46,496 nucleotides of DNA from Malassezia furfur (taxonomy: Eukaryota): the NCBI GenBank assembly GCA_052055015.1, contig JBQJIT010000035.1. One strand, given 5' to 3'. The notes below the pieces were generated by a model. It searched no databases and was not told where the DNA came from. It was given only the letters and a program-made list of their open reading frames with translations. Positions 1,258-43,817 of the stretch are shown one piece after another (positions within the stretch are counted from its first letter, which is position 1; each line of letters opens with the position of its first letter). The translations under genes were made by a program, and so were the position numbers.

Positions 1258-1259
1258 GG

Positions 1260-1266
1260 TGAGTCA
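1260..1266. promoter_or_regulatory. Gcn4/CpcA-type site TGAGTCA immediately upstream of the HIS7 ATG
   Basis: Exact TGA(C/G)TCA heptamer. Histidine biosynthesis genes are classical Gcn4 targets. Confidence 0.5.
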
Positions 1267-1286
1267 GCTCGAAAACGAGCACGCGC

Positions 1287-1292
1287 CACGTG
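1287..1292. promoter_or_regulatory. CACGTG E-box in the 74-bp HIS7/PhoD bidirectional promoter
   Basis: Palindrome roughly midway between the divergent ATGs at 1257 and 1332. The same motif recurs in the other divergent promoters. Confidence 0.55.
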
Positions 1293-1331
1293 CGTCGGCG
1301 GTTTTCCCGACGACCCACGGACCACGCTGCG

Positions 1332-3578
1332 ATGGGCGCCAAACACAAGGGCCGCACGTACGCCGACGCGGCAAAGAAACGCGCGGACAACCAGCATGAC
1401 AAGGCAGAGACGCCGAAAAAGCACGGACACACTAAGCCTGCTGCAGCAGACGCGCCGGCCGACGGCGACTCGTTGCAGACGCCCGCCGACCTCAAGCGCG
1501 ATCTGCCGCACGACGCCGCGCACCTCTTGCGCGAGCCGCGGCTCGGCCAGGTCGCACTCACACTCCAGGTGATCAGCAGCATCCTGTTCCGTGCGCTCGT
1601 GTTTGTGTTCCTGCGTATCATCCCGGGCCGCGCGGGCTTCTATGCCCTGCACCTGTACGCCGCCTACCTCGTCAGCTGGGCGCTGTACGAACTCAGCCTG
1701 CGCGCGCGGCACCACGAAGCGCCGCGCCCGGGCGCCAAAACGCTCGTCACCTCGCTGCTTCTCGGGCGCTCGACGCGCAACCGCCGCGTGAATGTCGCCC
1801 AGCTCGCGATCCACACCCTCTTGCTGGTGCTGTTCCTGGACAGTTACTTCTCGCCGTACATGTTCCCCTCGTACCGCGATGCGCACCTGCGCTTTGCGCG
1901 TATGGGTGCACTGAGCCCGACGACCGCTAAGCTGCACGTCCGCTACCCCCACCCTCTGCCTGCGCTCAACGGGCTGTGGGAGAGTGACATCGAGTCGGGT
2001 GTGCTGCAGGACGCGGCGCAGCTCGAGGCGCCCGTGCGCGTCGTTTGGCGCGCTGCACCCGAGGCGGAATCGAGCCCGGCCGAGGCACTGCGTACAAGCG
2101 CCGCGCTGCGCAACGCGCGCCGCTGGGAGCGTGGGCCGCTACTGCACCTCTCGGCGGACACCGACTGGACGGCGACGGCGACGCTCGAGGACCTGTGGCC
2201 CGCGACGCGCTACGAGTGGCGCCTCGCGTTTGTGCACAACAACACGTTTGCGCCGCTGCCGGAGCGGCCCGTGTCGTTCGTCACATGGCCGGACCCGCGG
2301 CTGTCTGCATACCTCAAAACCAAGCCGACCGAGCGCACAGCGCAGGTGCCGCTGGACAATCCGAACCACTTCCGGTTCGCGACGACGTCGTGCATCAAGC
2401 CCGACTTCCCGTACAACCCGGCGCAGTTTTGGGGCTGGAACTGGCTCCTGAAGCTGCTCGGCATCGGCAACGAAGTCGGCGGCATCGCACAACGGAACCG
2501 CATCCGCGGCTTCGACCTGATGGCCGACCGCCTTATCCAGAATGGCCGTGCGAGCATCCGCTTCTTGCTGGAGCTCGGTGACCTGATCTATGCGGACGTG
2601 CCACGGTACGAGGGGCCGTCGATCCGCGCGTACCGCAAGCTCTACCGCAACCTGTTCGCATCCAAGTCGTTCCAGCGCGTCTTCTCGCGGATCCCCATCA
2701 TTGGCATCTACGACGACCACGAGATCGTGAACAACTGGAGCGGCGGAGGGTACGGTGCCGAGGACGCGTCGCCCGACAAGGACGTCGTGCGCGACTATGA
2801 GCAACACCCGTCGCCTCCGCCGGGCCTCCCCGCGGGGCTGCAGGCCTGGTCGGAGTACATGGGGAACGCGAACCCCTCGGCGGTGCACCAGGGCGAACAC
2901 TACTTCACCTTCAACTACGGCGACACCGCCTTCTTTGTGATGGACACGCGCAAGCACCGCGTGCATCCGAGCTATCCGGGCGAGGAGCGCACCACGCTCG
3001 GCGTCCAGCAGCGTGCGGCGCTGCTTTCGTGGCTCAGCGAGGTGAACCACACGGCCACATTCAAGTTCCTTGTGTCCTCAGTGCCTTTCACCTCTCTGTG
3101 GGGCGGCCCGCTCGACTTTGACGGGCGCAAGGATGGCTGGTCGGCGTACCCTGAGGAGCGCCATGCGCTTCTCGACGTCCTCCAGTACGTGCCGAACGTG
3201 ATCATCCTGAGCGGTGACCGCCACGAGTTTGCCTCGGTGAGTTTCCGCGATTCGGTGGTCGAGTTCAGCACGAGCCCCTTGTCTATGTTCTACATTCCCA
3301 TCCGCACGCTCGCCCAGGAGCACTCGATCGATCCGCCGGGCCAGGAGCTGCTGCTGAAATACCTCCCGGACGGCAATCACAAGTGGACCGAGTTTGAGGT
3401 GGACACGCGCAGTCCTTCGGAACCGGCCGTGTATGCCACGGTCATGGTCGACGGAAAGGAGGCATGGCGCCTGACGGTCATGGGCCGCCCCATTCGGCGG
3501 TCGCAGGGCGCGCTGGGCTCGCTGGCCAAGAGCCTCATGGAGCTGCTGGGTTTCCGGAATCTGCGTTGGTTTGATTAA
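1332..3578 (+). CDS. PhoD-like alkaline phosphatase/phosphodiesterase with N-terminal transmembrane segments
   Basis: Motifs GDLIYAD, DDHEIVNNW, MDTR, DGW and LSGDRH typical of the PhoD metallophosphoesterase family. Hydrophobic helices near the N-terminus. First ATG at 1332. Confidence 0.85.
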   Translation: MGAKHKGRTYADAAKKRADNQHDKAETPKKHGHTKPAAADAPADGDSLQTPADLKRDLPHDAAHLLREPRLGQVALTLQVISSILFRALVFVFLRIIPGRAGFYALHLYAAYLVSWALYELSLRARHHEAPRPGAKTLVTSLLLGRSTRNRRVNVAQLAIHTLLLVLFLDSYFSPYMFPSYRDAHLRFARMGALSPTTAKLHVRYPHPLPALNGLWESDIESGVLQDAAQLEAPVRVVWRAAPEAESSPAEALRTSAALRNARRWERGPLLHLSADTDWTATATLEDLWPATRYEWRLAFVHNNTFAPLPERPVSFVTWPDPRLSAYLKTKPTERTAQVPLDNPNHFRFATTSCIKPDFPYNPAQFWGWNWLLKLLGIGNEVGGIAQRNRIRGFDLMADRLIQNGRASIRFLLELGDLIYADVPRYEGPSIRAYRKLYRNLFASKSFQRVFSRIPIIGIYDDHEIVNNWSGGGYGAEDASPDKDVVRDYEQHPSPPPGLPAGLQAWSEYMGNANPSAVHQGEHYFTFNYGDTAFFVMDTRKHRVHPSYPGEERTTLGVQQRAALLSWLSEVNHTATFKFLVSSVPFTSLWGGPLDFDGRKDGWSAYPEERHALLDVLQYVPNVIILSGDRHEFASVSFRDSVVEFSTSPLSMFYIPIRTLAQEHSIDPPGQELLLKYLPDGNHKWTEFEVDTRSPSEPAVYATVMVDGKEAWRLTVMGRPIRRSQGALGSLAKSLMELLGFRNLRWFD

Positions 3579-3737
3579 TGTAGACGCATCGGTAACACCA
3601 CCTAATTGCTTTTCGCTCGCGACGCTACGAGCCCTTTGGCATACGACAACACGTACACAGTCACACCGTGGTCGCCTGGCACCGTGCGAAGAGGTCTGGT
3701 TCATATAGGATCTGACAGGAGGCTCTGTCAGAACAAA

Positions 3738-3837
3738 TCCCGGCTAGCTCAGTCGGTAGAGCGTCAGACTCTTAAAAGAGTCTCTTCGGTTACGAAGAGT
3801 TATCTGAATGTCGTGGGTTCGAGCCCCACGTTGGGAG
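3738..3837 (+). tRNA. tRNA-Lys(CTT) with a 27-nt intron (3775-3801)
   Basis: Acceptor stem TCCCGGC/GTTGGGA, A-box TAGCTCAGTCGG, anticodon stem TCAGA/TCTGA with CTT at 3771-3773, T-loop GGTTCGAGCC. Mature length 73 nt. Confidence 0.93.
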
Positions 3838-3844
3838 TTTTTTT
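3838..3844 (+). terminator. RNA polymerase III oligo-T terminator
   Basis: T7 run directly after the tRNA discriminator base. Confidence 0.8.
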
Positions 3845-3955
3845 GGAATCCTCCATATTTCGGTCAGCGCCACTCGCGCATGCATTCGTACCCACAGGTA
3901 TCATGATTGTGGTCTCTACTATCACCTGAAATAGTATTTTGCGTGTTCTCGCATC

Positions 3956-4660
3956 CTAAATACGAACACTGGCGTTGGCACGGTTCACCGTGCCGATCTT
4001 GTGCGCCTCGTCCTTGCGAGAAAGCACAGAGCTGTTGCCTTCCAGTACAGCAAGCATCTCCACAGCCAGACGGTGGCTAATCGAACGGTCCGCCCTCCGA
4101 CGACTTGCTTCGATGATCCACATGATCGCACGGCGCGTGCTCTGTCGCGCATTCAACGGAATGGGAACCTGCATCGTTTTCCCGCCCTGTTTGCGCGACT
4201 GCATGCGCAAAATGGGCTTGGCAAGCTCCACAGCTTCATAGACGAGCGGAAGTGGGTCCGAGTTGGTCAGTTTGGCCATGTCTGCAAGCATCCCAGCAAC
4301 AAAGCGCTCGGCAGTCGCCTTTTTTCCATCCCGCATCAGCAGGTTGACCATGAACTGAAGCAGTGGATCTTGCCGCGGAGGCAACGTGTCCAATGTATAT
4401 GTAAACGATGTCTTCGAGACCGTCTGAGTCGATGGCGAGCTATTGTTGAAGGAAATAGACTTGCCCGCATTCAGCCCCGTCTTGGGTGCGCCCTCCTGCG
4501 TACTGGCCTCCGCTGCCAGTCGCGCAACACTGTTTGTGGAAAACGAAGCGACGCGACCAACAGCGGCAACGTGCGACACACACGTCACTTGTGCCACAGG
4601 GGAAACAGCCTTCCACATGGCTGGAATGCGACGGCTTTGCGCAGCGACGCCCGTCAGCAT
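3956..4660 (-). CDS. RSM7: Mitochondrial ribosomal protein uS7m
   Basis: Arg/Ser/Ala-rich presequence followed by the S7 core (FMVNLLMRDGKKATAER, AIMWII, HKIGTVNRANA). Confidence 0.9.
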   Translation of the reverse strand: MLTGVAAQSRRIPAMWKAVSPVAQVTCVSHVAAVGRVASFSTNSVARLAAEASTQEGAPKTGLNAGKSISFNNSSPSTQTVSKTSFTYTLDTLPPRQDPLLQFMVNLLMRDGKKATAERFVAGMLADMAKLTNSDPLPLVYEAVELAKPILRMQSRKQGGKTMQVPIPLNARQSTRRAIMWIIEASRRRADRSISHRLAVEMLAVLEGNSSVLSRKDEAHKIGTVNRANASVRI

Positions 4661-4698
4661 TGTGCGAAAAGGCGTATGGCGGTGGCAGCAGAGTCGGT

Positions 4699-4704
4699 CA
4701 CGTG
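4699..4704. promoter_or_regulatory. GTCACGTG E-box in the 84-bp RSM7/hypothetical bidirectional promoter
   Basis: 38 and 40 bp from the two divergent ATGs. Matches the Cbf1-type RTCACGTG. Confidence 0.55.
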
Positions 4705-4744
4705 GCAACACCTCCACCGCTTCTTCCCTTCATTGCGTTTGAGA

Positions 4745-5335
4745 ATGGCCCCCGACGAGGTTCCTGGACGGCCACGCCCCGGCCCACCGCCGCCTAGACC
4801 TCCATTTAGTGCTCCCACGGATGCGAGGTACGATGGACCACCCCCGTGGTCGGGTGCAGGCCAAGAGCCACGGAGCGCTCCTGTCCGTCCTCCACCTCCC
4901 TACGGTCCCCCGCGCCCTAGGAACAGCCGCTGGGATGCTCCGCCGCCCCGAGTATCCAGTGGTCCACCGCCCGGAAGTGTGGATGCTCCGCCTCGTCCAC
5001 CTTCTCTGATACCCCGTGCGCCTCCTCGTACACAAATTGCCCCTGAGCTCATGACAGAGGTACGATTACCGGTGCTGACGCAGATTGCGGATATTCGGTC
5101 TCAGCGTATGCAGACAATCCGGTCACACTATCTTGTGACGAGCAAGTCGGCGTCTGGAAGCGCTACGATTCCTCCGCATTTCTCTCTTCAAAGCTCACTG
5201 ATGGAGTTGAGTGATGCCGAGCTCGAGTCAAGCGCGATGCATGCACGAACCGAATTCCTTGAAGCGTCCCTTGTCCGCACTCAGGAAGATGCCTTTGCGT
5301 ACTCGGCAGTGACCAGTGCGACGCAGCATGCCTAA
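4745..5335 (+). CDS. Hypothetical protein, Pro/Arg-rich N-terminus and helical C-terminus (196 aa)
   Basis: ATG at 4745 (MAPDEVPGRPRPG...) divergent from RSM7. The upstream part of the track ORF 4001-5335 is antisense shadow of RSM7. No family recognised. Confidence 0.65.
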   Translation: MAPDEVPGRPRPGPPPPRPPFSAPTDARYDGPPPWSGAGQEPRSAPVRPPPPYGPPRPRNSRWDAPPPRVSSGPPPGSVDAPPRPPSLIPRAPPRTQIAPELMTEVRLPVLTQIADIRSQRMQTIRSHYLVTSKSASGSATIPPHFSLQSSLMELSDAELESSAMHARTEFLEASLVRTQEDAFAYSAVTSATQHA

Positions 5336-6264
5336 GGAAGGCGCCTGTTTTTTGATACCATCTTCATTGTGTCTAGTTTCATTGCAACATGTATACTATA
5401 GGTTTGATCTCTGTGCAGTGTACAGGGCTAACTGGAACTGGATGCGCGGCTCTTGCATGCCCACTTATTTCGAGCTTAGACGTTCTTGTACCCTTGCACA
5501 CAAAACCTAATTTGATCGACCGGTCCCGCCTGGTGTCGCCGGCGCTGTCATCTGTAACGGCGCCTATTTTTATTCCTTGTGCCTATCGTACATAGTTAAC
5601 ATATACTCTAAGAATGAAGGTGATACAAAACCCTTAGCATATCTTAACTGCGCCGCCTTTGCTGTGTTACCCTGCTACAGATGGGGTAATTTCCTATTTC
5701 GACACCATTCCTATTTCCACTCGGTGTCAGGTAGAGTTATCGAGGGACATGCCCCCCCGATCATGCTTTTTTGAAAAAAAAAAAATAAGCACAGACCGCC
5801 CTGATCGCCGCATGCACGGCTCGGCCTCTTTCGGGTGGGTCCGCCGGCGCCGTGCGGAGGTAAGTCGATCTACCTAGGCGCATTTATCACGCCCATCCCC
5901 AAAACTAGTTCTGTGGAGACGCTGACCGATCGCGTATATTTGACAGGCGCGGTATTGGAAATGACATCACACTGCATTCGGCGCTATATTTAAGCTACCA
6001 ATTTCCGGAGCGATTCCTACATAGCCAATCATAGCGTGACCCCCTGCAAGAGATTTGCACGCCTCGATGAATCCAAGGTGTTGCTTGGTAAGCAAATTGC
6101 AGTGGGGTCGTACTGGGGCAACGCGACCCGCGCACGCACTGTGCGAGCAGGAAGCATCGTAACATTCTGGTGATCAACTTTACGTTTTACGGCAATTCGA
6201 GGAGCTAGTGCTTTAAGCTGGAGCTAGTTCTGTGTCGCATAACCAGAGATTAGTCCTGTCCAGG

Positions 6265-7426
6265 ATGTCATTTGTCTTCCCGGATCTGCCAGCGTGGTTC
6301 CTGGACGAAACGCCCACGTATCAATATGTACGTGTCACCCGACCTCGGGGACTCTACTAACACACCTTTGCAGTCAGCGCATACGCGATCTACCGTTTTA
6401 GACCCGCTCCAAGCAACGAATACATATGAGGCAACATCTGCATACGATTCCGAAAGCTTAAAGGCTTTGACGAGCTTGGATCGCTTGACCGCACCTGCGA
6501 CCAACTCGGCTCTGTTTCCGTATGGCACGGACGCGAATCTATGGCAAGATCGCACCATGCCAGGCATGGCATGGACGCCTATGGGCATGGGGGGAACCGC
6601 CCCCTATGCAGTCACTGGCGATGGCCCGATGGCGCCGCATTTGTCCGTGTCTCCGCTGCTTACCAATGGAGGTATGGCTTACGGAGTGCCGGTGATGCCA
6701 ACGGCGCCAATGGCTATGCGCCAGCCGTATACAATGGGTTATCCGATGCCCGTTGCGCCGGTGCCTGTGCGTGTGCCTGGCGTGCCGGATGAAGAGGGTT
6801 CTTTTCCAGTATTGAACACCTTTGTCGACTCGGCCTCGAACCCGACTTCGGACGCGTCGCGTGCGTCGCTGCTGCAAGACTCTCCCTTCCAGCCCGATGA
6901 CACTGAGACTGTCACGCAGTCCACTTATTCGACGCCACAGGCGCTGTATGAGACAAGTGCGGCCTATCCTGGCGCCGTCGGTCTACGAGGGACGACTGTA
7001 CCGAGCCGATCGCGCTCGCCGTCTCCCAGGTGGGCGACGTCATCATCACGATGGGACGAGCATGGCAATACTTCCCTCATGGATTTTTCCAAGCGTGGCG
7101 ACACTTCTGCCACATCCAAATCGCGACCGTTTGTGTGTTCCTACTGTTCGCGAGCGTTTGCTCGCAAGCATGACCTGGAGCGCCATGCGCGCGTTCACGT
7201 ACGTATGGTTACGTGTGCTGACCACAGTCGGGCGATCGTCCGTACGTTTGTTCCGAGTGCAAAAAAGGCTTTCCGCGGAGCGATGCGCTGCGGCGCCACA
7301 TGTACGTACTGGATGCGCGGTCTGTGTGCTAACGCCAGGCGTGTAGAGCATGGAACCTCGAGCCCCGGTGGACGCGGGACGTCTCCCGGCGAGCCGGGAT
7401 CTACGCGGCACGATGAAGAGGGTTGA
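6265..7426 (+). CDS. Two-finger C2H2 zinc-finger transcription factor. Introns 6328-6373, 7199-7227, 7302-7338
   Basis: Spliced fingers FVCSYCSRAFARKHDLERHARVH-SGDRPY-VCSECKKGFPRSDALRRHMRVEH. All three introns have GTACGT donors, CTRAC branch points and CAG acceptors. Confidence 0.88.
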
Positions 7427-7501
7427 AGGCGAGACGTCGTTAATACCTCACCTCTCTTCTGGCATGCTGCATTGTACTATAATGATGCCCTTCCCTATGA
7501 T

Positions 7502-8737
7502 TCATTTCCCCTCCAGGCGCGACAGGTCCAGGCGCGAGTCTTTTGCTAGGATTTCCGGCGTGAGCACCGAGTCACGGACTTTGAGTAGCTCCTTAAAGGA
7601 GTGCTTGATGGTGACATCCGATACATGCTTGATGGTGACATCCGATACACCCGCTGCAATGGAAATGCGCCTGGCTGTCCGCTGCTCACTGACTAGCATT
7701 GTAACAAGGTAGATAGAGGCCGCCGCGATGGTGATTGGGGAGCGGCCGGCCAAGTAACCGAGATCATGGATCCGATTGGTGATGGCCTCCGTCACCCGCA
7801 CAATCGACATGTCCAGGCCCAGGTGGTTGCAGTAGCGCGCCACCAGGTCCGTCGCACCCACTGCGAGCCCGAGCGGCGTGCCGCTGCCCGACGTGCCCGG
7901 CCCAGGCCCAGCGTCGGCGTGCGCGTCTTCGGCGCCCTCCACCGAGCCCATGCCCGTCGCGTTCAGACCGAACGCGTCGCGCATCTCGCGGAAGCACCGC
8001 GCAACTTGAGCTTTCTTCGCCGAGGTCAGCGCACACACCTCGGGGAAGGTGCGCGGCACGCGGTTGACTCGGCACGCGACATAGATGGCTGCGGCAATGA
8101 TAGCGTCGGTGTGCTTCCCACGCAGCAGCTTCTCCTGGTCCACGCGGCGGTACGCCTGCTTCGCCGTGTCGCACACGGTGCGCGGCAGATGGATGCTGTC
8201 GCACTTGTTTTGGATCGAGTCGAAGGCGTCTAGCAGCGAGCGGTCGCGTGTGGCATAGGTGCGCGACATGGTGCGCATCAGGTCGCGCGACGTCCCTGTG
8301 CCGCCATCACGCGTCCCTATGCGGCTCTCCAGTTGCTCGGTGATACCATCGAGGATGGGGTTCGATGCGCTGCCCACACGCGATGGATCGTCGCCGTCCT
8401 CGTTGGCAAACGTACGCCACTCGCTGCGCGTATCGACAATGCGGTCGCCCAGCACGAGCCCACAGTCTGCACACACCAAATCACCACTCGCAAACTCCTC
8501 TGTGATGTTCGGCGGGACCGTCTGGCACTCGGGGCACATGAGACGCACGTTGAGGTCCGGCAGGAACTGCTTTGGCGCCTTGCGCTGCTGGTTGCGCGCA
8601 GCGAGCGCCTCGGCCTCGACCAGCCCATGGTGTGCCGCACGTTCTGCACGCTCCGCAGCAAACCGCGGAGTGATCGCGAAAGCGTCCGAGAGCGACGGCG
8701 GCGCGGCGGGCGCCCGCGACTCCGACTCGGACGCCAT
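7502..8737 (-). CDS. SUA7: General transcription factor TFIIB
   Basis: Zn ribbon CPEC...CADCG, B-reader SEWRTF...DPSRVG, two cyclin repeats (AAAIYVACR...PRTFPEV; GRSPITIAAASIY). Confidence 0.96.
   Translation of the reverse strand: MASESESRAPAAPPSLSDAFAITPRFAAERAERAAHHGLVEAEALAARNQQRKAPKQFLPDLNVRLMCPECQTVPPNITEEFASGDLVCADCGLVLGDRIVDTRSEWRTFANEDGDDPSRVGSASNPILDGITEQLESRIGTRDGGTGTSRDLMRTMSRTYATRDRSLLDAFDSIQNKCDSIHLPRTVCDTAKQAYRRVDQEKLLRGKHTDAIIAAAIYVACRVNRVPRTFPEVCALTSAKKAQVARCFREMRDAFGLNATGMGSVEGAEDAHADAGPGPGTSGSGTPLGLAVGATDLVARYCNHLGLDMSIVRVTEAITNRIHDLGYLAGRSPITIAAASIYLVTMLVSEQRTARRISIAAGVSDVTIKHVSDVTIKHSFKELLKVRDSVLTPEILAKDSRLDLSRLEGK
7602..7649. repeat. Exact 24-bp tandem duplication inside TFIIB (VSDVTIKH x2)
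   Basis: tgcttgatggtgacatccgataca at 7602-7625 and again at 7626-7649. Confidence 0.95.
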
Positions 8738-8774
8738 GGTCGGGGATCGAAGGTGGAGGCGTGTCCGATCCCCC

Positions 8775-8780
8775 CACGTG
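8775..8780. promoter_or_regulatory. CACGTG E-box in the 74-bp SUA7/NUP84 bidirectional promoter
   Basis: 37 and 31 bp from the divergent ATGs at 8737 and 8812. Confidence 0.55.
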
Positions 8781-8811
8781 GCCCATCGGCGCAGGGTGGG
8801 TTGCACCCGCG

Positions 8812-11145
8812 ATGGCCGAGGAGTCGGTGTCGAGCTTCGCGGCGTTCGCGGACGCGTACCGCGCGGCGAAGTCGCTCGACGTGGCGCAGCAGCTCGATCC
8901 GCAGTCGGGCACAGCTCTCGTCTTTGCTGATATTTGCGCAGACCGCGCGCGGCTCGCCCAGGATGGCGCGCCGCCTGCCGCATCGCTCGACGACCTGCAT
9001 GCCGAAGAATGGGACACGGAGCAGCATACTTGGCGGCTGATCCAGCTGCTCTTTTCGTATGTCTTCCTCACTTACCCAGTGAACGCCTCGAGTCGCGCCC
9101 CGAGCGCAGCGAGCCTGAGCACGCGTACGAGACGCCGCTCGCGACTGTGCAGCGGATTCTTGCCTCCGACACGGAGCTGGCCGAGCTCAAGATCGTCCGC
9201 GAGTGGCTCCAGGATCTACTGCCCGTCGTGCACACCGTAGAGGTGCGCAAGGGGTACCTTTCTTTCACGAAAAACGCGCTGCGTGCCAACCGTACGCAGC
9301 TACCGTCCGGTGGCCGCCGGGGGAATGAGCGGCTCGTGGACCAACTCGATCCCGACGCGGCGGTGCGCGGGCCAGGTGTTCTTGATGTCGAGGACGTGAA
9401 CTACGAAAAGGCGCTGCTGCGCACGCTGTTTGAGTACGTGCGCGCCGGTGAGCTCGACAAGGCGCTGCACCTCTGCACGCAGAGCAGCCAGCCCTGGCGC
9501 GCGGCATCGCTGCGCGGCGCGCTATTCTACCATGACCCGGGCCTATCGGACGTGGGTGGCGCCGAGGCGATGGGCGACCGCTTGCGCAGCGTTTGGCGCC
9601 GTGTCGCCGAGAAGGCCGCGAGCAGTGTACGTGCGACTTCCACTGACGCAGCTGGCGATCGATCCGTACGAACGTGCGCTGTATGGCGCACTCTGTGGCC
9701 ATCTGTCCTCGGTACTTGCCGTGAGCGAGACGTGGGAGGAGCAGCTCTGGGGGTATATCAACGCGCGCTTTGAGCAGCGCCTGCAGCACGAGCTCGATGC
9801 AGCGTCGCCCAGTGACGGTACGCGAGCGCCGACGAGCGGCTCCGCCGAAGCGTTTGAGGACCTCGGGTCGATCTTTGAACAGCTCGTGCAGTCCAAGACG
9901 CCGGGCGTTGAGCATGCTGCGATGGATCCGTACCACATCACGCAGCGTGCTGTGATCACCAACCAGCTGCCCGATCTGATTGCGCGGGTGAATGCGCGCC
10001 TGCCCGAGCTCGAGGCGCTGCGCCCCGAGGTATATGCGCGGTTCGTGCGCTTCTTTGCGCACCTCGTGCTGTACTGCCACCTAATCCACATCCCGCTGCC
10101 GATCGCGCTGCGCGCGCCGATCCTGAATGCGTACGTGGGTGTGTTGCAGCGTGCGAACCAGAGTAGCGAGCTGGTTGCGCTGTATGCCAGCAGCCTGGAC
10201 ACGGCCGACGCGCACGTCGTGTTTGCCGAGTTCTTGTGCAGCCTGCCGACCGATGCGCCGCTCGAGGAGCGGCGGCGCGCGCTGCTGCAGTCGCAGCCGC
10301 ACAACCTCGACCCGGCGATCGTCGCGCGGTGTACGGTGGACATGGTATTTGGTGCACTGCTCCCCGAGCTGGCCGAGAGCGGTCCGACAAGCGACTGGGA
10401 CGCGTCGCTCACCGACACGGAGCGCCGCCTGATCTATGCCGTGGATTGGCTCACCTTCTTTGAGGCGACGTATGCGGACGCTGTCGTACAGACCAACCGG
10501 CTGATGCGCGTTTTCATGGTGACGGGCCGACTGCATGCGGCACACAGCCTGCTGCGCCGCCTACCGCCCGAGCTGTTTGCGCAGCTCGACCAGGTCGAGG
10601 TGCCTGCCGACCAGGTGCTCGAGGTGGACCACTGGCGCAGCTACTTTGACGTCCTTGACAAGAACGTGGCGGTGCGCGGGCTGTGGAGCGACTACTGCCA
10701 TGCCGACTCACGTACCGAGCAGCACGAGGGGCTGCAGGCGCTCACGAGCGCCGTCGAGACGGCGCGCCTCGCGAACCTCGAGCTGCTCGAGCTCGGCTGG
10801 CTGCGCCTCGACGTGGAGCCGGCATCCGACGAGGAGGCGCAGCGGCTGCACGAGCTCGTGGTGATCCGCCGGCGGTACATCCCCGAGATCGTGCTGAGCC
10901 TGCACCTGATGCTCGTCGACACGAGCCAGGCGATCCCCGCGAACCTCTCGCACGCGCTGCAGCTGCCCAACCTGATCGCCGACGAGCGTCTGCGGCTCTA
11001 CGCCGAGTTTGCGACGCCCGAGCCGACCGCCGACGGCTCGCACAATCTGCTGCGTGCCTACCTTGAGCACGTACGCAGCGCCGCGCTCCTGGCCATGGAC
11101 CGGCACGAGGATGTGCTGGGGTGCAACGAGGGCGTCGTCGTATAG
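8812..11145 (+). CDS. NUP84: Nucleoporin Nup84/Nup107. Introns 9057-9079 (23 nt) and 9627-9651 (25 nt)
   Basis: Motifs LVDQLDPDA, LFEYVRAG, QPWRAASLRG, YERALYGALCG, TWEEQLW and IRRRYIPEIVL. The introns join three track ORFs in frame. Confidence 0.9.
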
Positions 11146-11152
11146 TCTAGTC

Positions 11153-12494: not shown

Positions 12495-12514
12495 GCTGGT
12501 CCAAAAAAAAGAGC

Positions 12515-12520
12515 CACGTG
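12515..12520. promoter_or_regulatory. CACGTG E-box in the 91-bp RPF1/COX8 bidirectional promoter
   Basis: Lies between the ATGs at 12494 and 12586, next to an A8 tract. Confidence 0.5.
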
Positions 12521-12585
12521 GGTTTCGGGGCTGCCCGGCCGAGCCACCCCGGGGCCGAGGCGGCTCCGTTTGTCCATTACCAACC

Positions 12586-15316: not shown

Positions 15317-15369
15317 GGCGTGGAGCGAAGCGCGCGTGCGGGTGTTGATATTGATGCTCGGCCGAACCA

Positions 15370-15375
15370 CACGTG
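15370..15375. promoter_or_regulatory. CACGTG E-box in the 101-bp F-BAR/CorA bidirectional promoter
   Basis: 53 and 42 bp from the divergent ATGs at 15316 and 15418. Confidence 0.55.
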
Positions 15376-15417
15376 CGCCCCCTGCGCATCGACCCTGCTC
15401 GCAGTGGTGGCCGCGAG

Positions 15418-23492: not shown

Positions 23493-23557
23493 CACGTGAC
23501 TCACAGCGGTGAAAGGGTTTTTGCGCCACACGCCTGCACATGATTCGCCGCCACGTG
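23493..23557. promoter_or_regulatory. Overlapping CACGTG + TGACTCA (23493-23503) and a second CACGTG (23552-23557) between the cyclin and SET genes
   Basis: Sequences cacacgtgactcac and ccacgtgt. Confidence 0.45.
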
Positions 23558-26154: not shown

Positions 26155-26164
26155 GACTATATAC

Positions 26165-30061: not shown

Positions 30062-30089
30062 GCAGTACGAAGCCACGTCGCGCACGCGT

Positions 30090-30095
30090 CACGTG
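30090..30095. promoter_or_regulatory. GTCACGTG E-box between TPP2 and the Rab escort protein gene
   Basis: In the divergent interval, but only 5 bp from the ATG at 30101. Confidence 0.4.
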
Positions 30096-30100
30096 CACTC

Positions 30101-31783: not shown

Positions 31784-31787
31784 GTAG

Positions 31788-34179: not shown

Positions 34180-35103
34180 GAGCAACCTCCACCTAGAAAT
34201 TCAGGTCCGAGACTGGTGCAAGATCTGTCAAACTTCGTTGAGCAACGAACAGACACACTCTCAAACGAGTAGCATTCACGGCAAGGTAGACATGTCGTAC
34301 TTCTGGCACAATTTAACAACAATACTTCACTTTTAGCCCATGCCAAGCCATGGGAGGGTCTTGGCCCATAGATCGATTGGCCGAAGCGCGCTAACAACGT
34401 GTCTTGGCAGCCGCACGTTGTGTATCATGACCAAATCTGCAGTCATTCATAGAGGAAAGTCCAAACTATTTAAAGAGAAGTATGGTGCGTGACTAGTTCT
34501 TCTGCTCTAGCTTCTTAGCCGCCACCCGCCAACGCCGCACAATACATGTGGGTGTCGCATTGGGAAGGCTTAGACCAGGAACATATTCACCGCGACGTAG
34601 CCTCATCGATCGTAGTCACCGCCACATGCATGAAGACTGCAGCTTGTCGTATTCGTCCAGATTGACCCGTAGGCGTAGTTTGTAACCAGCCTGTAGGGTA
34701 CAGTGCACTGCCACAGCGGCGTAATCCAATCGTGCGAGCAAATCCAAGATCCAAAATCGCGAAGCTTTTTGAGCTAATAGATTGCGCGCATTGCCTAGGC
34801 TAGACTTCCAGTCCCGAACATAAATCGCCGCATACCACGTCGATCCCAAGTAGCACCGCCATGACAATCCTTGGAATCCAATTTTTTGTGCGAGATCGCA
34901 ATACAGCGCTCACCGCCCACTCTTGGCATCATAGCACTTCGACTCCCAGCACCCCCCTGTTTGGTGTGCGCAGTTCCTTTTCATCGCCGCGGGGAGCTCT
35001 GCCTCTTCATCGCCTGCTGGAGTGCATAGCCAACGTATGTAGCCTTGGGATCATAAAAGGCGGCCCATCGGCTTTCCTAAACCGCATTCCACACAATCAG
35101 AAC

Positions 35104-36082: not shown

Positions 36083-36841
36083 ATGTCTTCTCATGAACAT
36101 CTCAAGTCTCAGCGTTTCAGCCTCGGCCCACCCGTATAGAAATTGCTTGTACAGACCTTTGCTTTTTTCTTCGTAGTTGAATAGACCATTGCTTTTTTGT
36201 TTTTCTTTTATCTCATGATTAGGTCTGCGTCTTCCCAGCCTGATGGAACTTTCTTGATGATTTCATCTCAAGTACAAATTAGGTCTTGTATGTTCGGTGA
36301 TGCGGGGTTGCCAACCCACTGGTGTGGAGGTGCTTGTACAAAAGATATAGCTACGGCCGGATCTTGAATCGCGTCAGCTTGGTTCACGCTGTATTGTCAT
36401 CGCCACATGCCAGTAACGAGGGGAATGGCAGTGTGCATGGACCACCCCAGAAGCTCTGACATCTGATTCGAGCGCTCGGGCGGGATCTGGACATTGACAC
36501 TCAGTATAGGCTAGATCAGGTTAAAGGGTACTGCCGCGACACCCAGTTTGCATTGGGCGTTTACCAAATGAGGTGCTTACGATGCCGTCTAGTTCCCAGC
36601 AAGGAAATAGCGTACAGCACGGACCACTTTAGCGTCAAACCTCCGCGCCAAAATGCACGCCTCTTGGCGTCCACAGCCTCATTGCCACGTGCTCAGCTGC
36701 AGGGGTGAATCGGGGCAGAACCCCCCTCGCAGAGGCTCGCACTGCCCAGGTGCGGGGAAGCGGGAGCAGAGACTACACATAAAAGTCGGGCCTTAGGCAC
36801 GGAGGGAGCCTCACGCTGGCCGTCTAGCCGATTCCATCACA

Positions 36842-37564
36842 ATGTCCTCCTTCCGCAAAGTCGCTCTGCTCTTTATCGCTGCCATACTCGCTACCTCGGT
36901 TGCAACTGCTTCGGCATCTGCCTCGCACGCGCATGGATCACTCCAGGGCATGCGCATCCACCGCCGCGCTGATGCTGGTCGTCAGCTGCGTGCGCGCGAG
37001 GCCGAGAACAATGTTCAGCTGCGCGAGATGTACAGCGAGTTTGTCTCCAAGGCGTTGCGCGAGAAGCGCGAGCCCGTGTCGTTTGAAGAGTTCCTGAAGC
37101 ACCCCAAGGTTGCCAAGCGCGGCTTTTGGGATCCTTTCGGCGATGATGACGGCAATTCGTCGTCGAGCTCGAGTTCTACCATGAGTTCGAGCGCTAGCTC
37201 GAGTGCCAGCTCGACTGCGAGCAGCGGAGGCGGCTCGGACGATGACTCGTACACGGGCCAGGCTACCTACTACACGCCCGGCATGGGCGCCTGCGGGAAG
37301 TCGAGCAGCTCGTCGGACATGATTGTCGCGGTTTCGCACACGCTCTTCGACAAGTACTCCAAGAGTGGAAACCCCAACGATAACGAGCTTTGCGGCAAGA
37401 AGATCAAAGCTACCTACGGAGGCAAGTCGACGACAGTTACTGTTGTCGACCGGTGCACTGGATGCAAGGAGACGGACCTCGACTTTTCGCCCAGTGCGTT
37501 CACAAAGCTTGCGTCCAAGTCCAAGGGCCGCTTGCACGATATGAAGTGGTCTTTTGTTGAATAA
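36842..37564 (+). CDS. Secreted RlpA-like double-psi beta-barrel (expansin/loosenin/Asp f 7-like) protein
   Basis: Signal peptide, pro-region ending in KR, Ser-rich linker, then GQATYY..GMGACG, IVAVS, CGKKI, VTVVDRCTGC...DLDFSPSAF. Confidence 0.88.
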   Translation: MSSFRKVALLFIAAILATSVATASASASHAHGSLQGMRIHRRADAGRQLRAREAENNVQLREMYSEFVSKALREKREPVSFEEFLKHPKVAKRGFWDPFGDDDGNSSSSSSSTMSSSASSSASSTASSGGGSDDDSYTGQATYYTPGMGACGKSSSSSDMIVAVSHTLFDKYSKSGNPNDNELCGKKIKATYGGKSTTVTVVDRCTGCKETDLDFSPSAFTKLASKSKGRLHDMKWSFVE

Positions 37565-37707
37565 AGGGCAGCATGCTGGCATGCCGACCCTATGTCTATT
37601 TCTGTTTTGTTTCTTTGCTTGTATCATTTCTTCCCCTTACGACTATATGTAGACTGCGTGTTGACCGCTGGACGGCTTGCAGAAATTGATTTGATTTACG
37701 TCAAGTA

Positions 37708-39088
37708 TTAATCGGAATCGTCGTCGCTCCGCGAGTCGATGGCACCCGCGTTAGTCAAGACGCGGTAGGCCACTTTGAGAATCATACCGAACCAAATCAA
37801 CAAGATGCTTTGCAGGACTCCGAGCAGTGTGATGAACATGACATAGAGGGCTGGTGTGAAGGCATAACCGGCCTGCAGGTCCACTGGAGAGCGGTAGGGG
37901 ATCAGGCGGGGCGCATCGTAGATGCACGTCACCATGACGAACATGTAGCAAACGTGTCGCGTAATGGTCCACGAAATCATAAAGGCGCCAAACATAGCAT
38001 CACAGATGGTCTGCCAGCCCATGTATTTCAGCATTTTAGCAAGCTTGGTAAGCCCGGGAGATACATACAGCCAAAAGAATGTCACTCGGATCCATCAACA
38101 GGAGGATCACCAAGCCGATTCGCCAGAAACAGCATACATATGAACCGCCGATCAACATCATTGTGACGATGTGGTGTACCGTCATTTGAACGTAGTCAGA
38201 GCGGCGAGCTTCAATGTTGATAACAAAGAGCTGGTGAATGTAGTTGGACGCCTCCCACAGGTATACAGCCTTGGTCAGTCCGTCCATGGTCGTGTGGGGA
38301 TATCCAGCCCAGAGTTGCTCAGGGTTCCAAAGCCAGAATGGCTGTCGTCGTGACACCGTCTTGGTTAGCAAAAAGACACATACCACCACAAGCATGAGCG
38401 ACGTAGCATACAAGAGAAAGATCCAGAATTGCTCGGCAAACCGATCAATGCTGCGATAATACTTGCGCTGGTGGCCTGCTTGCACCCATTTCTCTGGCGG
38501 AGGCCGCTTGACCAGACGGCGCGCAGTAGGAAGAAGCAGAACAGACATCAGGACCCCACGAAGGGCTAGCAACGCAACACCCCATGTCACAGCGAACAGT
38601 GCGTCGCGCGGATCACGCTTATACAGCAGTGACGGAGCGTAGGTCATGTCAGACACCTTACTTTTGCCAAAAACATGAGCAACCTGATTCCAGGTACTGG
38701 CGAAGCCGTTGTGTGCTTTGCCTGTTACGTTTTCGGTGCCACCAGAAAGGAAGAGACATGCATGCGTCGCACTATGCACACGCGAGCAGACATGCGTCAT
38801 CGTCGCCTCGGTCGGGCGTTGTGCAATCCCGTACTTGCTCAAGAACGTCCATACAGGTTCATAGCGCGACAACGTATGGCAGTTCTCGGGCTTTGTTGAC
38901 CAGTAGAGACCGGCGAGCACCGCAATGATCAGCAGAGACACAATCGTACCCCACCGACTAGCTGCTGCGCGGAGCTGGTCGGGCGATACGGCCTTTACGA
39001 CACTTCCTGGCTTTTCGTGATGCTTAGTGGATGCCGCTGTGCGCTTGGCGACATTTTTTTTACCTGATTTCTTGTTCTTCTTGGGCAT
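37708..39088 (-). CDS. LAG1: Ceramide synthase (Lag1/Lac1, TLC domain). Introns 38360-38383 and 38044-38068, both with AAG acceptors
   Basis: RFAEQFW and the Lag1 motif EARRSDYVQMTVHHIVT...MDPSDILLA-LAKMLKY. C-terminal DSRSDDD. Confidence 0.9.
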
Positions 39089-39534
39089 CGACGTAGTAGA
39101 CACGTACGCTCGAGCCAGTTAGTCTTCGCGCTGCACGCCTGTGCTATGCGTCAATCACGCCAATTGGTACCGATCTTATATGCGGCCACGTGCGCCGACG
39201 CGCGCACAGAATATTCTCACCGCCCCAAAGGCAATTGAATCGGGTCAAGCTGTCAGCCAGCCGAACCCGCCAGCCGAATCTATTGGAGATGCACAAATGG
39301 GCGGCCAGATAGTAGAGAGAATTGATGGCTTCGCAGCAAAATCCTACGATGGCTAGGATCACGTAGACTAGCGCCAGCAAACGAGGCCAAATCTTAAGCG
39401 AGCTCATCCATCTTTACCAGATTGCTGCGCGTTCTAGGCATTTACCTCGATTTCACTGCCTGTAAAACATATAGTCGCAAGCACTGAGTGCCTTTCCTTA
39501 CGTTCTTTCTCACTGACCGCTACAACACCTGCAG

Positions 39535-39542
39535 TGAGTCAT
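39535..39542. promoter_or_regulatory. Gcn4/CpcA-type site TGAGTCAT upstream of PRO2
   Basis: ATGACTCA on the minus strand, 52 bp before the ATG of an amino-acid biosynthesis gene. Confidence 0.55.
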
Positions 39543-39593
39543 CCGCTAGAGACGTGCAGCGCTCGACACCTCGGCCGAACCTCTTGGAAGACG

Positions 39594-41030
39594 ATGGCCA
39601 CCCAGATTGCTTGCCAAGCGCGGCAGGCGTTTGATGACGCACAAAAACTGCTCTCTGGGCGTGGATCGGAAGCCGCCGATGCCGCCCGTGTGAAGGCACT
39701 TGAAGAAATCCGCGCCGAGCTCGAGGCGTCGCAAGACGAAATTCGCACCGCGAACGAGCGCGACGTTGCGGAGGCCAATGCGCTCGTCGAGCAGGGCAAG
39801 CTGTCCAAGCAACTCGTCTCGCGATTGGACTTGTTCGCGAAGAAAGGAAAGTGGGAGTCGATGCTGCAGGGCGTGTCTGACGTTGCCAAGCTGCCCTCGC
39901 CTCTGGATGTCTGCACGTCCGCCAACCGGCTGGCTGCCCCGCACGGTTCTTCGGGCGCGCTCGACCTGTACCGTGTGACGTGCCCCATCGGCGTGTTGCT
40001 GTGTATCTTCGAGGCGCGCCCCGAAGTGATTGTAAATATTGCGAGCCTGGCAATCAAGTCTGGCAACGCTGCCATTCTGAAAGGTGGCAAGGAGTCGAAG
40101 CACTCTGCGGCGGTCCTGGCGCGCTGCATCGCCCGGGCGCTTGCGCGGAGCGAGCTTCCGGAGCATATTGTACAGACTGTGGAAACGCGCGACGAAATCC
40201 AGACGCTCTTGCACGAGGAGCGCTACATTGACCTCGTTATCCCCCGGGGGTCCAATGCGCTCGTCAAGAACATTCAGCGCGAGGCGCGCATGCCGGTCAT
40301 GGGCCACGCCGACGGCCTGTGTGCTACGTACATTCATGACGATGCTGAGCCCACGCTTACGATTGAGACCGTGCTGGACAGCAAGCTGGACTACCCCTCG
40401 GCGTGCAATGCTCTCGAGACGCTCCTGGTGAACCGCAAGCAACTGTCCTCGGGCCTGTGGCTTGCACTTGCCGAGGCGCTTTTGCGCGCTAATGTGCGCC
40501 TGCACTGCGACCCGGCGTCGCTCGAGGCGCTTGAACCCTTGCGTCAAAATGCCGAATGGGCTAAGCTCATCGTGCCAGCCCAGCCGGAAGACTTTGACAC
40601 CGAGTTCCTCGACTTGGACCTGGCCGTGCGCGTGGTGGATGGCGTGGAAGAGGCCGTGGATCACATCAATGCGCACGGGTCCGGGCACACGGACGTGATC
40701 CTCACCGCGCCGCTGCCCGAAAAGAGCACCAACCCACCCGGCCAGACGGCCGCCGACATCTTTACGCGCTCGCTGTCGTCGTCGAGTGTGTTTGTGAATG
40801 CATCATCGCGCTTCGCCGACGGCTTCCGCTACGGATTTGGCACCGAGGTCGGGATCAGCACCGGGCGTACGCATGCGCGCGGACCGGTCGGTCTCGAGGG
40901 CCTGGTGACGTACAAGTATGTCCTGCGCGGCACCGGCAGCGGCGCGCAGACGGCTGGTGCCTTTTCGCAGGGTGCAGCGCCACGCGCGTGGGCGCACCAA
41001 CCGATTGAGCAGGTATACCCGGGTTTGTAG
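39594..41030 (+). CDS. PRO2: Gamma-glutamyl phosphate reductase
   Basis: CPIGVLLCIFEARP, KSGNAAILKGGKES, DLVIPRG, PVMGHADGLC, YPSACNALETLL, SRFADGFRYGFGTEVGIST, HARGPVGLEGL. Confidence 0.96.
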   Translation: MATQIACQARQAFDDAQKLLSGRGSEAADAARVKALEEIRAELEASQDEIRTANERDVAEANALVEQGKLSKQLVSRLDLFAKKGKWESMLQGVSDVAKLPSPLDVCTSANRLAAPHGSSGALDLYRVTCPIGVLLCIFEARPEVIVNIASLAIKSGNAAILKGGKESKHSAAVLARCIARALARSELPEHIVQTVETRDEIQTLLHEERYIDLVIPRGSNALVKNIQREARMPVMGHADGLCATYIHDDAEPTLTIETVLDSKLDYPSACNALETLLVNRKQLSSGLWLALAEALLRANVRLHCDPASLEALEPLRQNAEWAKLIVPAQPEDFDTEFLDLDLAVRVVDGVEEAVDHINAHGSGHTDVILTAPLPEKSTNPPGQTAADIFTRSLSSSSVFVNASSRFADGFRYGFGTEVGISTGRTHARGPVGLEGLVTYKYVLRGTGSGAQTAGAFSQGAAPRAWAHQPIEQVYPGL

Positions 41031-43745
41031 CTACGAAGTCGAATTGCTCGCAAGCAGCTCGTAGATCTCATCCGTTTCGCTTGGTGAGAGGACAAGGTCG
41101 ATGAGGTCGCCGGCCAGCATGGCGGCGTTCTCGAGCTGCGACCGCATCCGGCTGCGCTCCGGGACGGGCTCTGCATCGCCGTCGTCGGCGAGCCAGCTGG
41201 GCGCCTGCGCAAATGCAATGCGTCCCATTGACACCACGAAGGCGTGCCGGATCCCATTCAGGATGGCCTGGGCCTGGGTGGAAAGCAGTTTCTCGGCCAA
41301 GCCCCGGCCCAGGCTCGTCTCGGGCGCATACAGCTGGTGCAACAGGCGCGTGGTCATGCACACACGTGCGAGGGCACTGCGTTAGTCGTCGACGTACTGT
41401 TCGGTTCGGTCGCCCGCCATTGCCCCGCCCCAGACCTCTTCGGTGTCCCACGAAAGGCATTGGATCAGCGCAGGCAGCAGCGGCACCGACTCGCTCAAGA
41501 TCACCGCCGTGTCGCCGTACCGTGCGGCACTCGACATGAACAGCAGCGTGGCCGTGTGCAGCTTCTGCACGTATGCCGCGGACGTATCACCGCGCCGGTC
41601 GACCAGATGCTTGGCCAGAATGTCTACCACGGAGAAGCGCACCTGGAGCAAGCGCGCCGGCACGCGCGGTTGCAGCGCATGGTCGTACGGACTCGCGAGG
41701 GCCATGTGCAGCGTCATTACATCCGGGATGAGCGACGAGAGCAGGTCGACGGACTGATACAAGACATCATGAGAACTGGTCTGTACATCGAGCAGGGTAA
41801 GCAGCACGCCGGGCTGTTGGAAGAACGGCTGCAGCTCCACCAGCCCGGTTTGGCCCACCGTCCAAGCAAGCACGCGCGCACACCGCACAATGGCACCCAG
41901 CAAGCTCATCCGCGCTTCCGGGCCCATGTCCCACACTGGCTCGCCCTGGGCATCGGCTTCCGGCTGGGCATCGGGCGACGACACGCTTAACGGCACGGCG
42001 TGACATTTGCGCACGCACTCAATCCACATCTTGACGAGGCTGGTAGGTGTTGCGGGCGCCGACGTATCCGGCTTGCTTGGCTCCTGGCTCTCTTGCGACG
42101 ATGGCAAAAGCTCCTTATCGTCCTGGTTGCTGGGCACCATGCTGTGCTCGGGCACTTGGGGGGTATCTGGCTCGGCCCAGTCGAGGTACTGCACCTTCTT
42201 CAGTAGAAATGGCACGAATCCCGGCTGCGATATGCCCAGTGCCGCCATCCAATCCAGCATGGCTGCGACGTAGTGGGTCTGAGTTAGTCGTAGGCACGTA
42301 CCAAGTTGAGCCGCAGAAACACACCCGTGAGCACGCGCAGGGCTGCGGCGACAGTGCCAAAGAGCGCCCCCGTCTGCAGCTCCCACACGCGCTCGACGAC
42401 CGCATCAATCGATGCAGGGGTATAGGCGCTGTGCTCGCGCAGCGCATCGTCCACCACGTGCCCACACTCCGCAAGGAATACGTTGTATGAGCTGCTTTTT
42501 GTCACCGAGTCCCACAGTACCTCGGCCGCGTGCGAAAATCGCCGTCGCAGGCGCTCGGGCACAGCATGGGGCAGCTGCATGGATAAGAGGTGCAGCAGCA
42601 TAGGTATCGATGGCGCATCTTCAGGCTTGCTTTCCTTCTCTGCATCCGGGTCTAGCGCGGCGCACCAGGTGTGCAGGCCGGGCCCCAGCGGGAAGTACTG
42701 TGTGCCAGGGACTGACGCGGGCGGAGGCAGGGCCAGGAATGGCTGGCACATAACTTGGGTCGCCCAGCGCGTGCGGTAGCAGAAGAGCGTCGTGAGCACG
42801 AGCATCGATGCGTCGGGCGCATCCATCTGCTCACACGTACGCACGGGGCCCAGATCCGGCGATGGTGTGACCGGCGAGCTGCTGCGCTCGGCATCCGGCG
42901 GGGTATGGGGTGGCGATTTGGCCGCTCGCGACGCGGCGGGCGTCGCCAGACTCGATGAAAGCCCAGGCTGTAGGAATGAATTGACAAAGCGGGGAAATTC
43001 TGGATAAGGATTCAGCACGTACCCTTTTTTGTAGACGTTATGGGCGTCTTGGTGCTCCGCGTGCGCGATGGACTCGTAGGTTCGTCGGGCAACGAGCGCT
43101 TTCGCCGCGTGAGCGACAAGGGCGAAATTGGCGTAGGCGATGCACCGGGCGAATGAACATGGTGCACGATCCGGTTATGGGTCGGCGTGGTAAGTGTGGT
43201 GAACCCCGGCGTGCGCTTGGTGGCGCCTGTGTCGGTGATCATCACCGGCGCACGACGGCGCAACGATGAGGGCCATGCCGTGCGATTCGTGTCCTGTTCA
43301 ATGCGCTGCGATGAGATGGGATACGTACGCGGAATGCTGCCGCTGTCTCCAGCTTCTCGATCTGCCGCCGGTTCTCTTGCTGGATGCGCTCAAACCGCTC
43401 GCGGTACTCGGACTCGAGCTGAGTTTGCTTCTGCTGCAGGCCCGAGTTTTGCTCCTGGGCGCGTTTCCAGTTGGCACGGACGACGGCAATTTCGCCTTTT
43501 TGCTGCTGCGTCTGCCGCGTGAGGGTATCAATGAGCTCCTGCTGCTTGGCTTGGAGCGCGCGTAATTCTTGCAACTGCGCCTGCAGCGACGCAGGTTCGG
43601 ACGGTGCGGTCGACGCCGGGGTATTGACGTTCCCCGACGCCTGCGCCTGGATCTCGAGCGCCTGAAGCTGGGTATCGGTGACTGGATCGATCGCCAACGA
43701 GTCCCACCAGTCGTCATCGAAGCTCTCGTCCCCATCAGCGTCCAT
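41031..43745 (-). CDS. Probable ATRIP/Rad26/Lcd1-like checkpoint protein. Introns 43306-43328, 43000-43022, 42279-42301, 41377-41397
   Basis: Acidic N-terminus ([12 protein letters not shown]), coiled coil with KGEIAVVR, helical C-terminus. Four introns join five track ORFs. The family call rests on architecture only. Confidence 0.6.
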
Positions 43746-43777
43746 TCTGCCGACGTGGTCGACGTCCTCCACTTCCC

Positions 43778-43813
43778 CACGTGGATCCGCGACGCGCTCG
43801 TGTCCAGACGCGT
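43778..43813. promoter_or_regulatory. 72-bp bidirectional promoter with CACGTG (43778-43783) plus MCB-like ACGCG (43792) and ACGCGT (43808-43813)
   Basis: Lies between the ATGs at 43745 and 43818 of a checkpoint-like gene and FEN1. Confidence 0.55.
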
Positions 43814-43817
43814 CGAG

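Follow-up and report, generated by a model that had tools for sequence, protein, structure and literature searches.

This study concerns a 46,496-bp stretch of Malassezia furfur DNA (contig JBQJIT010000035.1), referred to here at its full length as the window, and the palindromic E-box hexamer CACGTG in the gaps between its genes. Judged from the sequence, CACGTG is supported as a specific, non-random promoter element that is tied to head-to-head gaps: exactly one copy lies in each of the seven short head-to-head gaps of 39–101 bp, and across the window the hexamer occurs in nine of the ten divergent gaps, in one of the six tandem gaps and in none of the nine convergent gaps (divergent versus tandem, Fisher p = 0.008). 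A copy is present within 160 nt upstream of the ATG in 17 of the 26 mapped genes.

The gene map was obtained from a Pfam scan of the 44 long open reading frames (ORFs) of the window, from which 26 genes were mapped, and the start codons were set from Pfam together with the sequence and in-frame context at each proposed start. The gene names given in an earlier reading made from the letters alone (the sequence-only reading) proved to be essentially right, the Pfam matches comprising a HIS7-type imidazole glycerol phosphate synthase, a PhoD-like phosphatase, mitoribosomal S7 (RSM7), TFIIB (SUA7), Nup84/107, a Brix protein (RPF1), an F-BAR/SH3 protein, a CorA-like transporter, tripeptidyl peptidase II (TPP2), a GDI/Rab-escort protein (REP) and FEN1. 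The starts of HIS7 and FEN1 are anchored by their N-termini (MLYLLDYGAG and MGIKG, respectively), that of REP by its coincidence with the beginning of the GDI domain and that of TFIIB by its necessary position upstream of the zinc ribbon. Opposite RSM7 lies an unverified proline-rich ORF of 196 amino acids (4745–5335), for which neither a Pfam match nor a usable Atlas match was obtained and which has an alternative in-frame ATG at 4676, upstream of the CACGTG at 4699. The resulting ATG-to-ATG gaps of 74, 84, 74, 91, 101, 39 and 72 bp agree with those noted earlier; a start of TPP2 at a downstream methionine would widen the TPP2/REP gap from 39 to 138 bp. Together with three longer gaps of 505–681 bp, these seven make up the gaps between head-to-head protein-coding pairs less than 1 kb apart.

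The seven short-gap sites and the four sites in longer upstream regions that had been reported were all recovered, and are given below. The sites themselves carry no strand; the strands of the flanking genes are in brackets.

1287–1292: CACGTG in the 74-bp gap 1258–1331 between HIS7 (−) and PhoD (+); centre 32.5 and 42.5 nt from the two ATGs.
4699–4704: CACGTG in the 84-bp gap 4661–4744 between RSM7 (−) and the unverified proline-rich ORF (+); centre 41.5 and 43.5 nt from the ATGs.
8775–8780: CACGTG in the 74-bp gap 8738–8811 between SUA7/TFIIB (−) and NUP84 (+); centre 40.5 and 34.5 nt from the ATGs.
12515–12520: CACGTG in the 91-bp gap 12495–12585 between RPF1 (−) and a COX8-like gene (+); centre 23.5 and 68.5 nt from the ATGs.
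15370–15375: CACGTG in the 101-bp gap 15317–15417 between F-BAR/SH3 (−) and CorA-like (+); centre 56.5 and 45.5 nt from the ATGs.
30090–30095: CACGTG in the 39-bp gap 30062–30100 between TPP2 (−) and Rab-escort GDI (+); off-centre, its end 5 nt from the REP ATG.
43778–43783: CACGTG in the 72-bp gap 43746–43817 between ATRIP-like (−) and FEN1 (+); ACGCGT at 43808.
23493–23557: two CACGTG (at 23493 and 23552) in the 648-bp gap between a cyclin gene (−) and a SET gene (+); 127.5 and 68.5 nt upstream of the SET ATG.
36686–36691: CACGTG, the sole tandem-gap site; 153.5 nt upstream of the ATG of a DPBB-domain gene.
39187–39192: CACGTG in the 505-bp gap between TLC/LAG1-like (−) and aldehyde dehydrogenase (+); 101.5 nt upstream of the TLC ATG.

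Over the whole window, the sites are distributed as follows.

Divergent gaps: 2,369 bp, 10 CACGTG.
Tandem gaps: 2,484 bp, one CACGTG.
Convergent gaps: 1,228 bp, no CACGTG.
Genic DNA: 40,415 bp, nine CACGTG.

Within the window, divergent gaps are therefore enriched over the convergent, tandem and genic controls. The total of 20 copies is not in excess, since 100 dinucleotide shuffles of the window gave a mean of 25.7 and 87 of them reached 20; the finding therefore lies in where the sites are and not in how many there are. Masking with all ORFs of 100 codons or more, whatever their frame, was considered as an annotation-free definition of non-coding DNA by which other fungal contigs could be compared, and was discarded because it is useless at such a GC content; in the window itself it leaves only two of the 20 sites outside ORFs.

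The sequence-only reading had expected the hexamer about once per 3 kb and had judged its presence in seven of seven gaps to be far above chance; the first figure should be about 1.8–2.3 kb, and the second statement holds. At the window frequency, the probability that all seven gaps contain at least one CACGTG is 1.7e-11, and against a dinucleotide-matched background (5,000 shuffles per gap) it is 1.6e-9. In an unbiased screen CACGTG was the sole hexamer present in all seven short gaps, and when all hexamers occurring at least three times in divergent gaps were compared between divergent gaps and genes it ranked first, with a Fisher p value of 1.3e-8 that is uncorrected over about 2,080 hexamers. 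The second-ranked hexamer was the overlapping ACGTGG, and no other fell below 1e-4. The perfect site is about tenfold enriched in 5′ regions (p = 1.4e-6), whereas the one-mismatch variants, in nine classes, show no enrichment there (the best, CACATG, is 2.5-fold, p = 0.1), as expected for the site of a basic helix–loop–helix (bHLH) homodimer. Other GC- and CpG-rich palindromes occurred at the counts predicted by composition, with no enrichment. CTCCAC (four of the seven short gaps) and CCTCCAC (three of the seven) were considered as a second common motif and rejected, neither being prominent in the enrichment screen.

The sites are also placed in a particular way within the short gaps. Their relative positions, in the order of the gaps above, are 0.43, 0.49, 0.54, 0.26, 0.55, 0.79 and 0.49, in agreement with the earlier observation that five of them are near-central; five of seven lie between 0.4 and 0.6 (p = 0.007), and the mean offset from the centre is correspondingly small (p = 0.004). 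The distance from the centre of the site to the ATG ranges from 8.5 to 68.5 nt with a median of about 40 nt, and three independent gaps have the near-identical minimal lengths of 72, 74 and 74 bp. For the longer promoters, the CACGTG-to-ATG distances are reported as 101.5–153.5 nt. The GC content of the seven short gaps is 57–73%, and TATAWA occurs in none of them, so that the absence of a TATA box noted previously is upheld. A tract of eight A residues (12503–12510) adjoins the CACGTG at 12515 in the RPF1/COX8-like gap and is the only A/T run longer than 5 across the seven short gaps. In the 505-bp gap, TATAAG is found about 8 nt past the CACGTG at 39187 on the TLC side (39195–39205); in the longer promoters the E-box may be joined by a TATA-like element, and the short gaps have no such element.

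Conservation in orthologous promoters was found for one promoter, that shared by ATRIP-like and FEN1, in two related contigs. A metagenome scan with FEN1 as the bait yielded 80 loci, and the head-to-head ATRIP-like/FEN1 pair is kept in three loci from close relatives, designated L003, L004 and L011. L003 and L004 match exactly across the roughly 300 bases compared; the identity of FEN1 to that of the window is 65% in L003/L004 and 52% in L011. The gap between the two genes is 141 bp in L003/L004 and 96 bp in L011, and each contains one CACGTG (position 861 of L004, 2812 of L003 and 557 of L011), which in L004 is 62.5–79.5 nt from the ATGs. In a three-way alignment, CCACGTG is the sole invariant intergenic block, with the coding starts conserved on both sides. 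In all three sequences ACGCGT, which we take to be an MCB-type (MluI cell-cycle-box-like) element, lies between CACGTG and the FEN1 ATG (43808 in the window, 891 in L004 and 580 in L011), and it is likely to be a gene-specific element beside the shared E-box, as would fit a cell-cycle element. Over the 12,249 bp of L004, three of the four CACGTG copies are intergenic, the intergenic DNA accounting for 9.3% of the locus (p = 0.003). L004 also keeps the order FEN1 then KRE6, with KRE6 tandemly duplicated there. A metagenome scan with NUP84 as the bait, whose orthologous loci could have taken in five of the seven short gaps, gave 59 pattern matches and no relative, and a FEN1-bait scan of prokaryote genome contigs for contaminating fungal DNA gave 181 pattern matches and no relative.

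The perfect CACGTG core is found in all 11 promoter sites, and the bases next to it favour GCCACGTG and also CCACGTG: among the 22 promoter half-sites, the 5′ neighbour of the core is C in 11, G in five, T in three and A in three. The extended form CACGTGGC is present in seven of the 11 promoter sites as against one of the nine genic sites (one-sided p = 0.025, a post hoc comparison). The preferred site of S. cerevisiae Cbf1 is TCACGTG, and that of Pho4 has A, C or G before the core (PMC8256859). The sequence-only reading had pointed to Cbf1 as a binder; with a 5′ T in only three of the 22 half-sites and a C in half of them, the flanks depart from the yeast Cbf1 optimum, and the sites are therefore described as working like those of a Cbf1-type general regulatory factor, with no factor named. 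No HLH domain was detected by Pfam among the 44 window ORFs. Of the broader proposal, a single palindromic site as a core element for both directions, the sequence supports an element that is specific and non-random, tied to head-to-head geometry, centrally placed, and conserved in one orthologous promoter; that one such site drives both directions, and does so throughout the genome, is a possibility, as is Cbf1 as the binder.

From the sequence of the sites and by analogy with known systems, it is reasonably probable that they bind a constitutive group-B bHLH dimer, probably of the bHLH-zipper type, acting as a general promoter-organising factor. One dimer near the middle would keep a shared, GC-rich and TATA-less gap of about 70–100 bp free of nucleosomes, and the bound dimer would form a fixed boundary just outside which both genes initiate, giving leaders of about 20–65 nt. 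The palindrome would be equally usable in both directions, and gene-specific elements, such as the ACGCGT before FEN1, would be added on top. That a protein binds and keeps nucleosomes away, where transcription starts, and that the sites act in both directions and throughout the genome are what we infer, and a genome-wide rule is put forward as a hypothesis. The distribution of ATG triplets hints that transcripts begin at or just after CACGTG, by an argument that is indirect and partly circular: in the 14 half-promoters, no sense ATG occurs in the 493 nt between site and start, versus six in the 493 nt beyond the site (p = 0.03), and by frame arithmetic on the coordinates five of these six are out of frame.

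Several observations weigh against this reading. The evidence comes from one 46,496-bp window and about 16 kb of related DNA. The long divergent gap 34180–34860 contains no CACGTG, nor does a 111-bp divergent gap in L004 between LSMT-like and steroid dehydrogenase genes, and the site is therefore regarded as common but not obligatory. The TPP2/REP site is not central and abuts the REP ATG. The asymmetry in ATGs is circular to the extent that the starts were chosen as first ATGs, which affects the in-frame ATGs only (one of the six). A preference for TCACGTG (the CDEI-like RTCACRTG) is lacking, T preceding the core in the three half-sites mentioned above, the yardstick being S. cerevisiae Cbf1, which may not hold for the orthologue of this lineage. 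Genic copies appear to be depleted, with nine observed and 21–23 expected under Markov models of order 1–4 (rank 1 of 1,471, 4 of 1,503 and 32 of 1,511 for depletion, depending on the order), but under a codon-preserving shuffle, which keeps the amino-acid sequence and codon usage, the 30,171 exonic bp have eight copies versus 12.0 ± 2.7 (p = 0.11); because the apparent depletion mostly disappears, selection against stray genic sites is not claimed. Finally, of the 21 FEN1 loci of the metagenome scan whose start could be recognised and that had 150 bp or more of upstream sequence, only three (L003, L004 and L011) have CACGTG within 150 bp upstream of FEN1, and the other 18 are without it; the site is accordingly a feature of this compact lineage and no ancient element of FEN1. 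In more distant FEN1 loci of the same scan, pairs of CACGTG 12 or 18 bp apart were observed (L006, 6743/6755; L008, 3702/3714; L063, 11000/11018 and 18985/19003; L066, 11000/11018).

A stronger version of the proposal, which we regard as possible but lean against, is that a single E-box of the GCCACGTG type and one abundant bHLH dimer provide, in this lineage, most of the architecture that a minimal bidirectional promoter needs, the E-box being its chief element and almost enough by itself. The smallest workable spacing would then be about 35–45 nt from site to start, which would explain the repeated 72–74-bp gaps, and the bound site would act as the boundary between the two transcription units and as a genome-wide stand-in for TATA boxes and poly(dA:dT) tracts.

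The sites might instead belong to the regulon of a condition-specific bHLH factor (phosphate control of the Pho4/NUC-1 type, sulphur control of the Cbf1–Met4 type or growth control of the Myc/Max-like type), the window being merely rich in targets. The non-T flanks of 19 of the 22 half-sites fit the A/C/G preference of Pho4 (PMC8256859) as well as the GCACGTG motif of Neurospora NUC-1, the related NUC-3 motif being GGCACGTGA (PMC12506109), and like the phosphate sites of these three factors, the sites of the window have a CACGTG core with a non-T 5′ flank. The flanking genes include a PhoD-like phosphatase and a Pho80-type cyclin, as well as the growth-related RPF1, mitoribosomal S7, TFIIB and COX8-like genes. 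However, the phosphatase and the cyclin are the only phosphate-related genes among the 19 that adjoin a site, so that the target enrichment of a Pho4 regulon is not seen. The 17 of 26 genes with a site at most 160 nt from the ATG are of unrelated function (histidine synthesis, a nucleoporin, F-BAR, a magnesium transporter, TPP2, Rab escort and FEN1 among them), and NUC-1 and NUC-3 are condition-specific regulators with small direct regulons of 27 genes each (PMC12506109). For NUC-3, the in-vitro sites number 1,391 and lie upstream of 1,793 Neurospora genes; some are common to divergent genes (PMC12506109). Unlike the sites of Pho4, NUC-1 and NUC-3, those of the window follow promoter geometry (nine of ten divergent gaps versus one of six tandem gaps) and not function, and an ordinary upstream activating site would not be expected to lie centrally. 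Because the functions are unrelated and the link is to gap geometry, this explanation is considered unlikely.

Slightly less likely again is that CACGTG works within the core promoter, where the basal machinery or a dedicated initiation factor would read it; as a palindromic initiator or positioning element it would hold transcription starts at a set distance to either side, and would not be the site of a chromatin-opening factor. The narrow range of site-to-ATG distances in the short gaps, the three gaps of near-equal minimal size, the lack of TATAWA in all seven gaps and the confinement of sense ATGs to the far side of the site would suit such an element. The spacing is nevertheless not fixed, as CACGTG is also found 101–153 nt from the ATGs in longer promoters and 62.5–79.5 nt from them in L004, and it is on account of this variation that the explanation is given less weight. 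Moreover, CACGTG is the classical bHLH site, and we know of no basal factor that reads it.

It is improbable that the bound site is mainly a roadblock or insulator against polymerases or nucleosome arrays invading the neighbouring gene, in a genome with almost no spacer DNA. The gene spacing is indeed extreme, with convergent gaps of 3–10 bp; roadblocks formed by bound general regulatory factors are known from yeast (PMC5052057), and Cbf1 has been described as a nucleosome-positioning barrier (PMC3061068). The need for a roadblock would be greatest downstream of genes, yet the convergent gaps are without sites (none of nine) and only one of the six tandem gaps has one, which makes this explanation unlikely, and transcription in divergent gaps runs away from the site. 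The stop-to-stop distances are 7 bp in the convergent pair NUP84/RPF1 (11146–11152), 10 bp in SET/TPP2 (26155–26164), 4 bp in REP/S49 peptidase (31784–31787) and 3 bp in aldehyde dehydrogenase/ATRIP-like (41031–41033), so that the 3′ untranslated regions and terminators must overlap the neighbouring gene. In the tandem arrangement downstream of FEN1, 46 bp without CACGTG (45196–45241) separate its stop from the first ATG of a KRE6/SKN1-like ORF.

That the sites have no function and reflect a local accident of composition, or a post hoc choice of gaps and start codons, is very improbable, and chance is excluded for practical purposes: the window total is not above that of the shuffles (20 versus 25.7), the proline-rich partner gene at 4745 is unverified and the motif was spotted by eye after the fact, but the per-gap shuffles (1.6e-9 for seven of seven) and the unbiased hexamer screen (1.3e-8 before correction) speak otherwise, GC- and CpG-matched palindromes and one-mismatch variants show nothing, and two other contigs retain the site amid diverged surroundings.

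Returning to a general promoter-organising bHLH dimer, the closest known counterparts are the Cbf1 sites of budding yeasts. In S. cerevisiae, Cbf1 holds CACGTG in accessible linker DNA and positions the flanking nucleosomes as a barrier (PMC3061068), while CACGTG is nucleosome-depleted in most pre-duplication yeasts, and Cbf1 was accordingly placed among the major general regulatory factors of their ancestor by inference (PMC2897762). As with Cbf1 sites, a perfect CACGTG core is found in the window in promoters of functionally unrelated genes, and the palindrome is able to serve both sides. The differences are that the sites of the window have the form GCCACGTG or CCACGTG in place of TCACGTG; that their usage is far denser, at 17 of 26 genes, the corresponding genome-wide figures for S. 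cerevisiae being 80 Cbf1-peak motifs and 112–128 chromatin immunoprecipitation sites (PMC3061068); that they stand singly and centrally in gaps of only 39–101 bp; and that the host is apparently a GC-rich, compact fungus outside Saccharomycotina. The gaps of the window also resemble the shared bidirectional promoters of yeast and human in being head-to-head, less than 1 kb in length, TATA-less and GC-rich, one nucleosome-free region with symmetric factor sites being a feature of those known systems. E-box/Myc-type motifs are over-represented in human bidirectional promoters. Unlike these promoters, the gaps of the window are about tenfold shorter, at 72–101 bp from ATG to ATG, and apparently rely on one dominant motif and not on a mixture.

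In conclusion, E-boxes are already known as promoter-organising sites, and the element reported here is not new in kind; what is new is its density (17 of 26 genes and nine of ten divergent gaps), its occurrence as one copy at the centre of gaps of about 75 bp and the lineage in which it is found. Searches of open-access text gave no paper that describes CACGTG in the promoters of Malassezia or of other basidiomycete yeasts, and the words 'promoter' and 'bidirectional' were not found in the excerpted text of the M. sympodialis annotation paper (PMC5389616). If the arrangement extends to the whole genome, a six-base site together with a single protein could account for most of the promoters in a very compact fungal genome, with a promoter grammar much simpler than that of model yeasts. 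It would also provide a defined natural two-way promoter of 70–100 bp for genetic tools, or, if the single E-box is nearly sufficient, a natural two-way promoter of about 75 bp built on one transcription-factor site, as well as a clean system for studying how two pre-initiation complexes fit into less than 100 bp. Depletion of one factor would be expected to disturb most of the transcriptome, and the role of CACGTG-binding bHLH proteins as ancient general promoter organisers would be extended beyond the budding yeasts.

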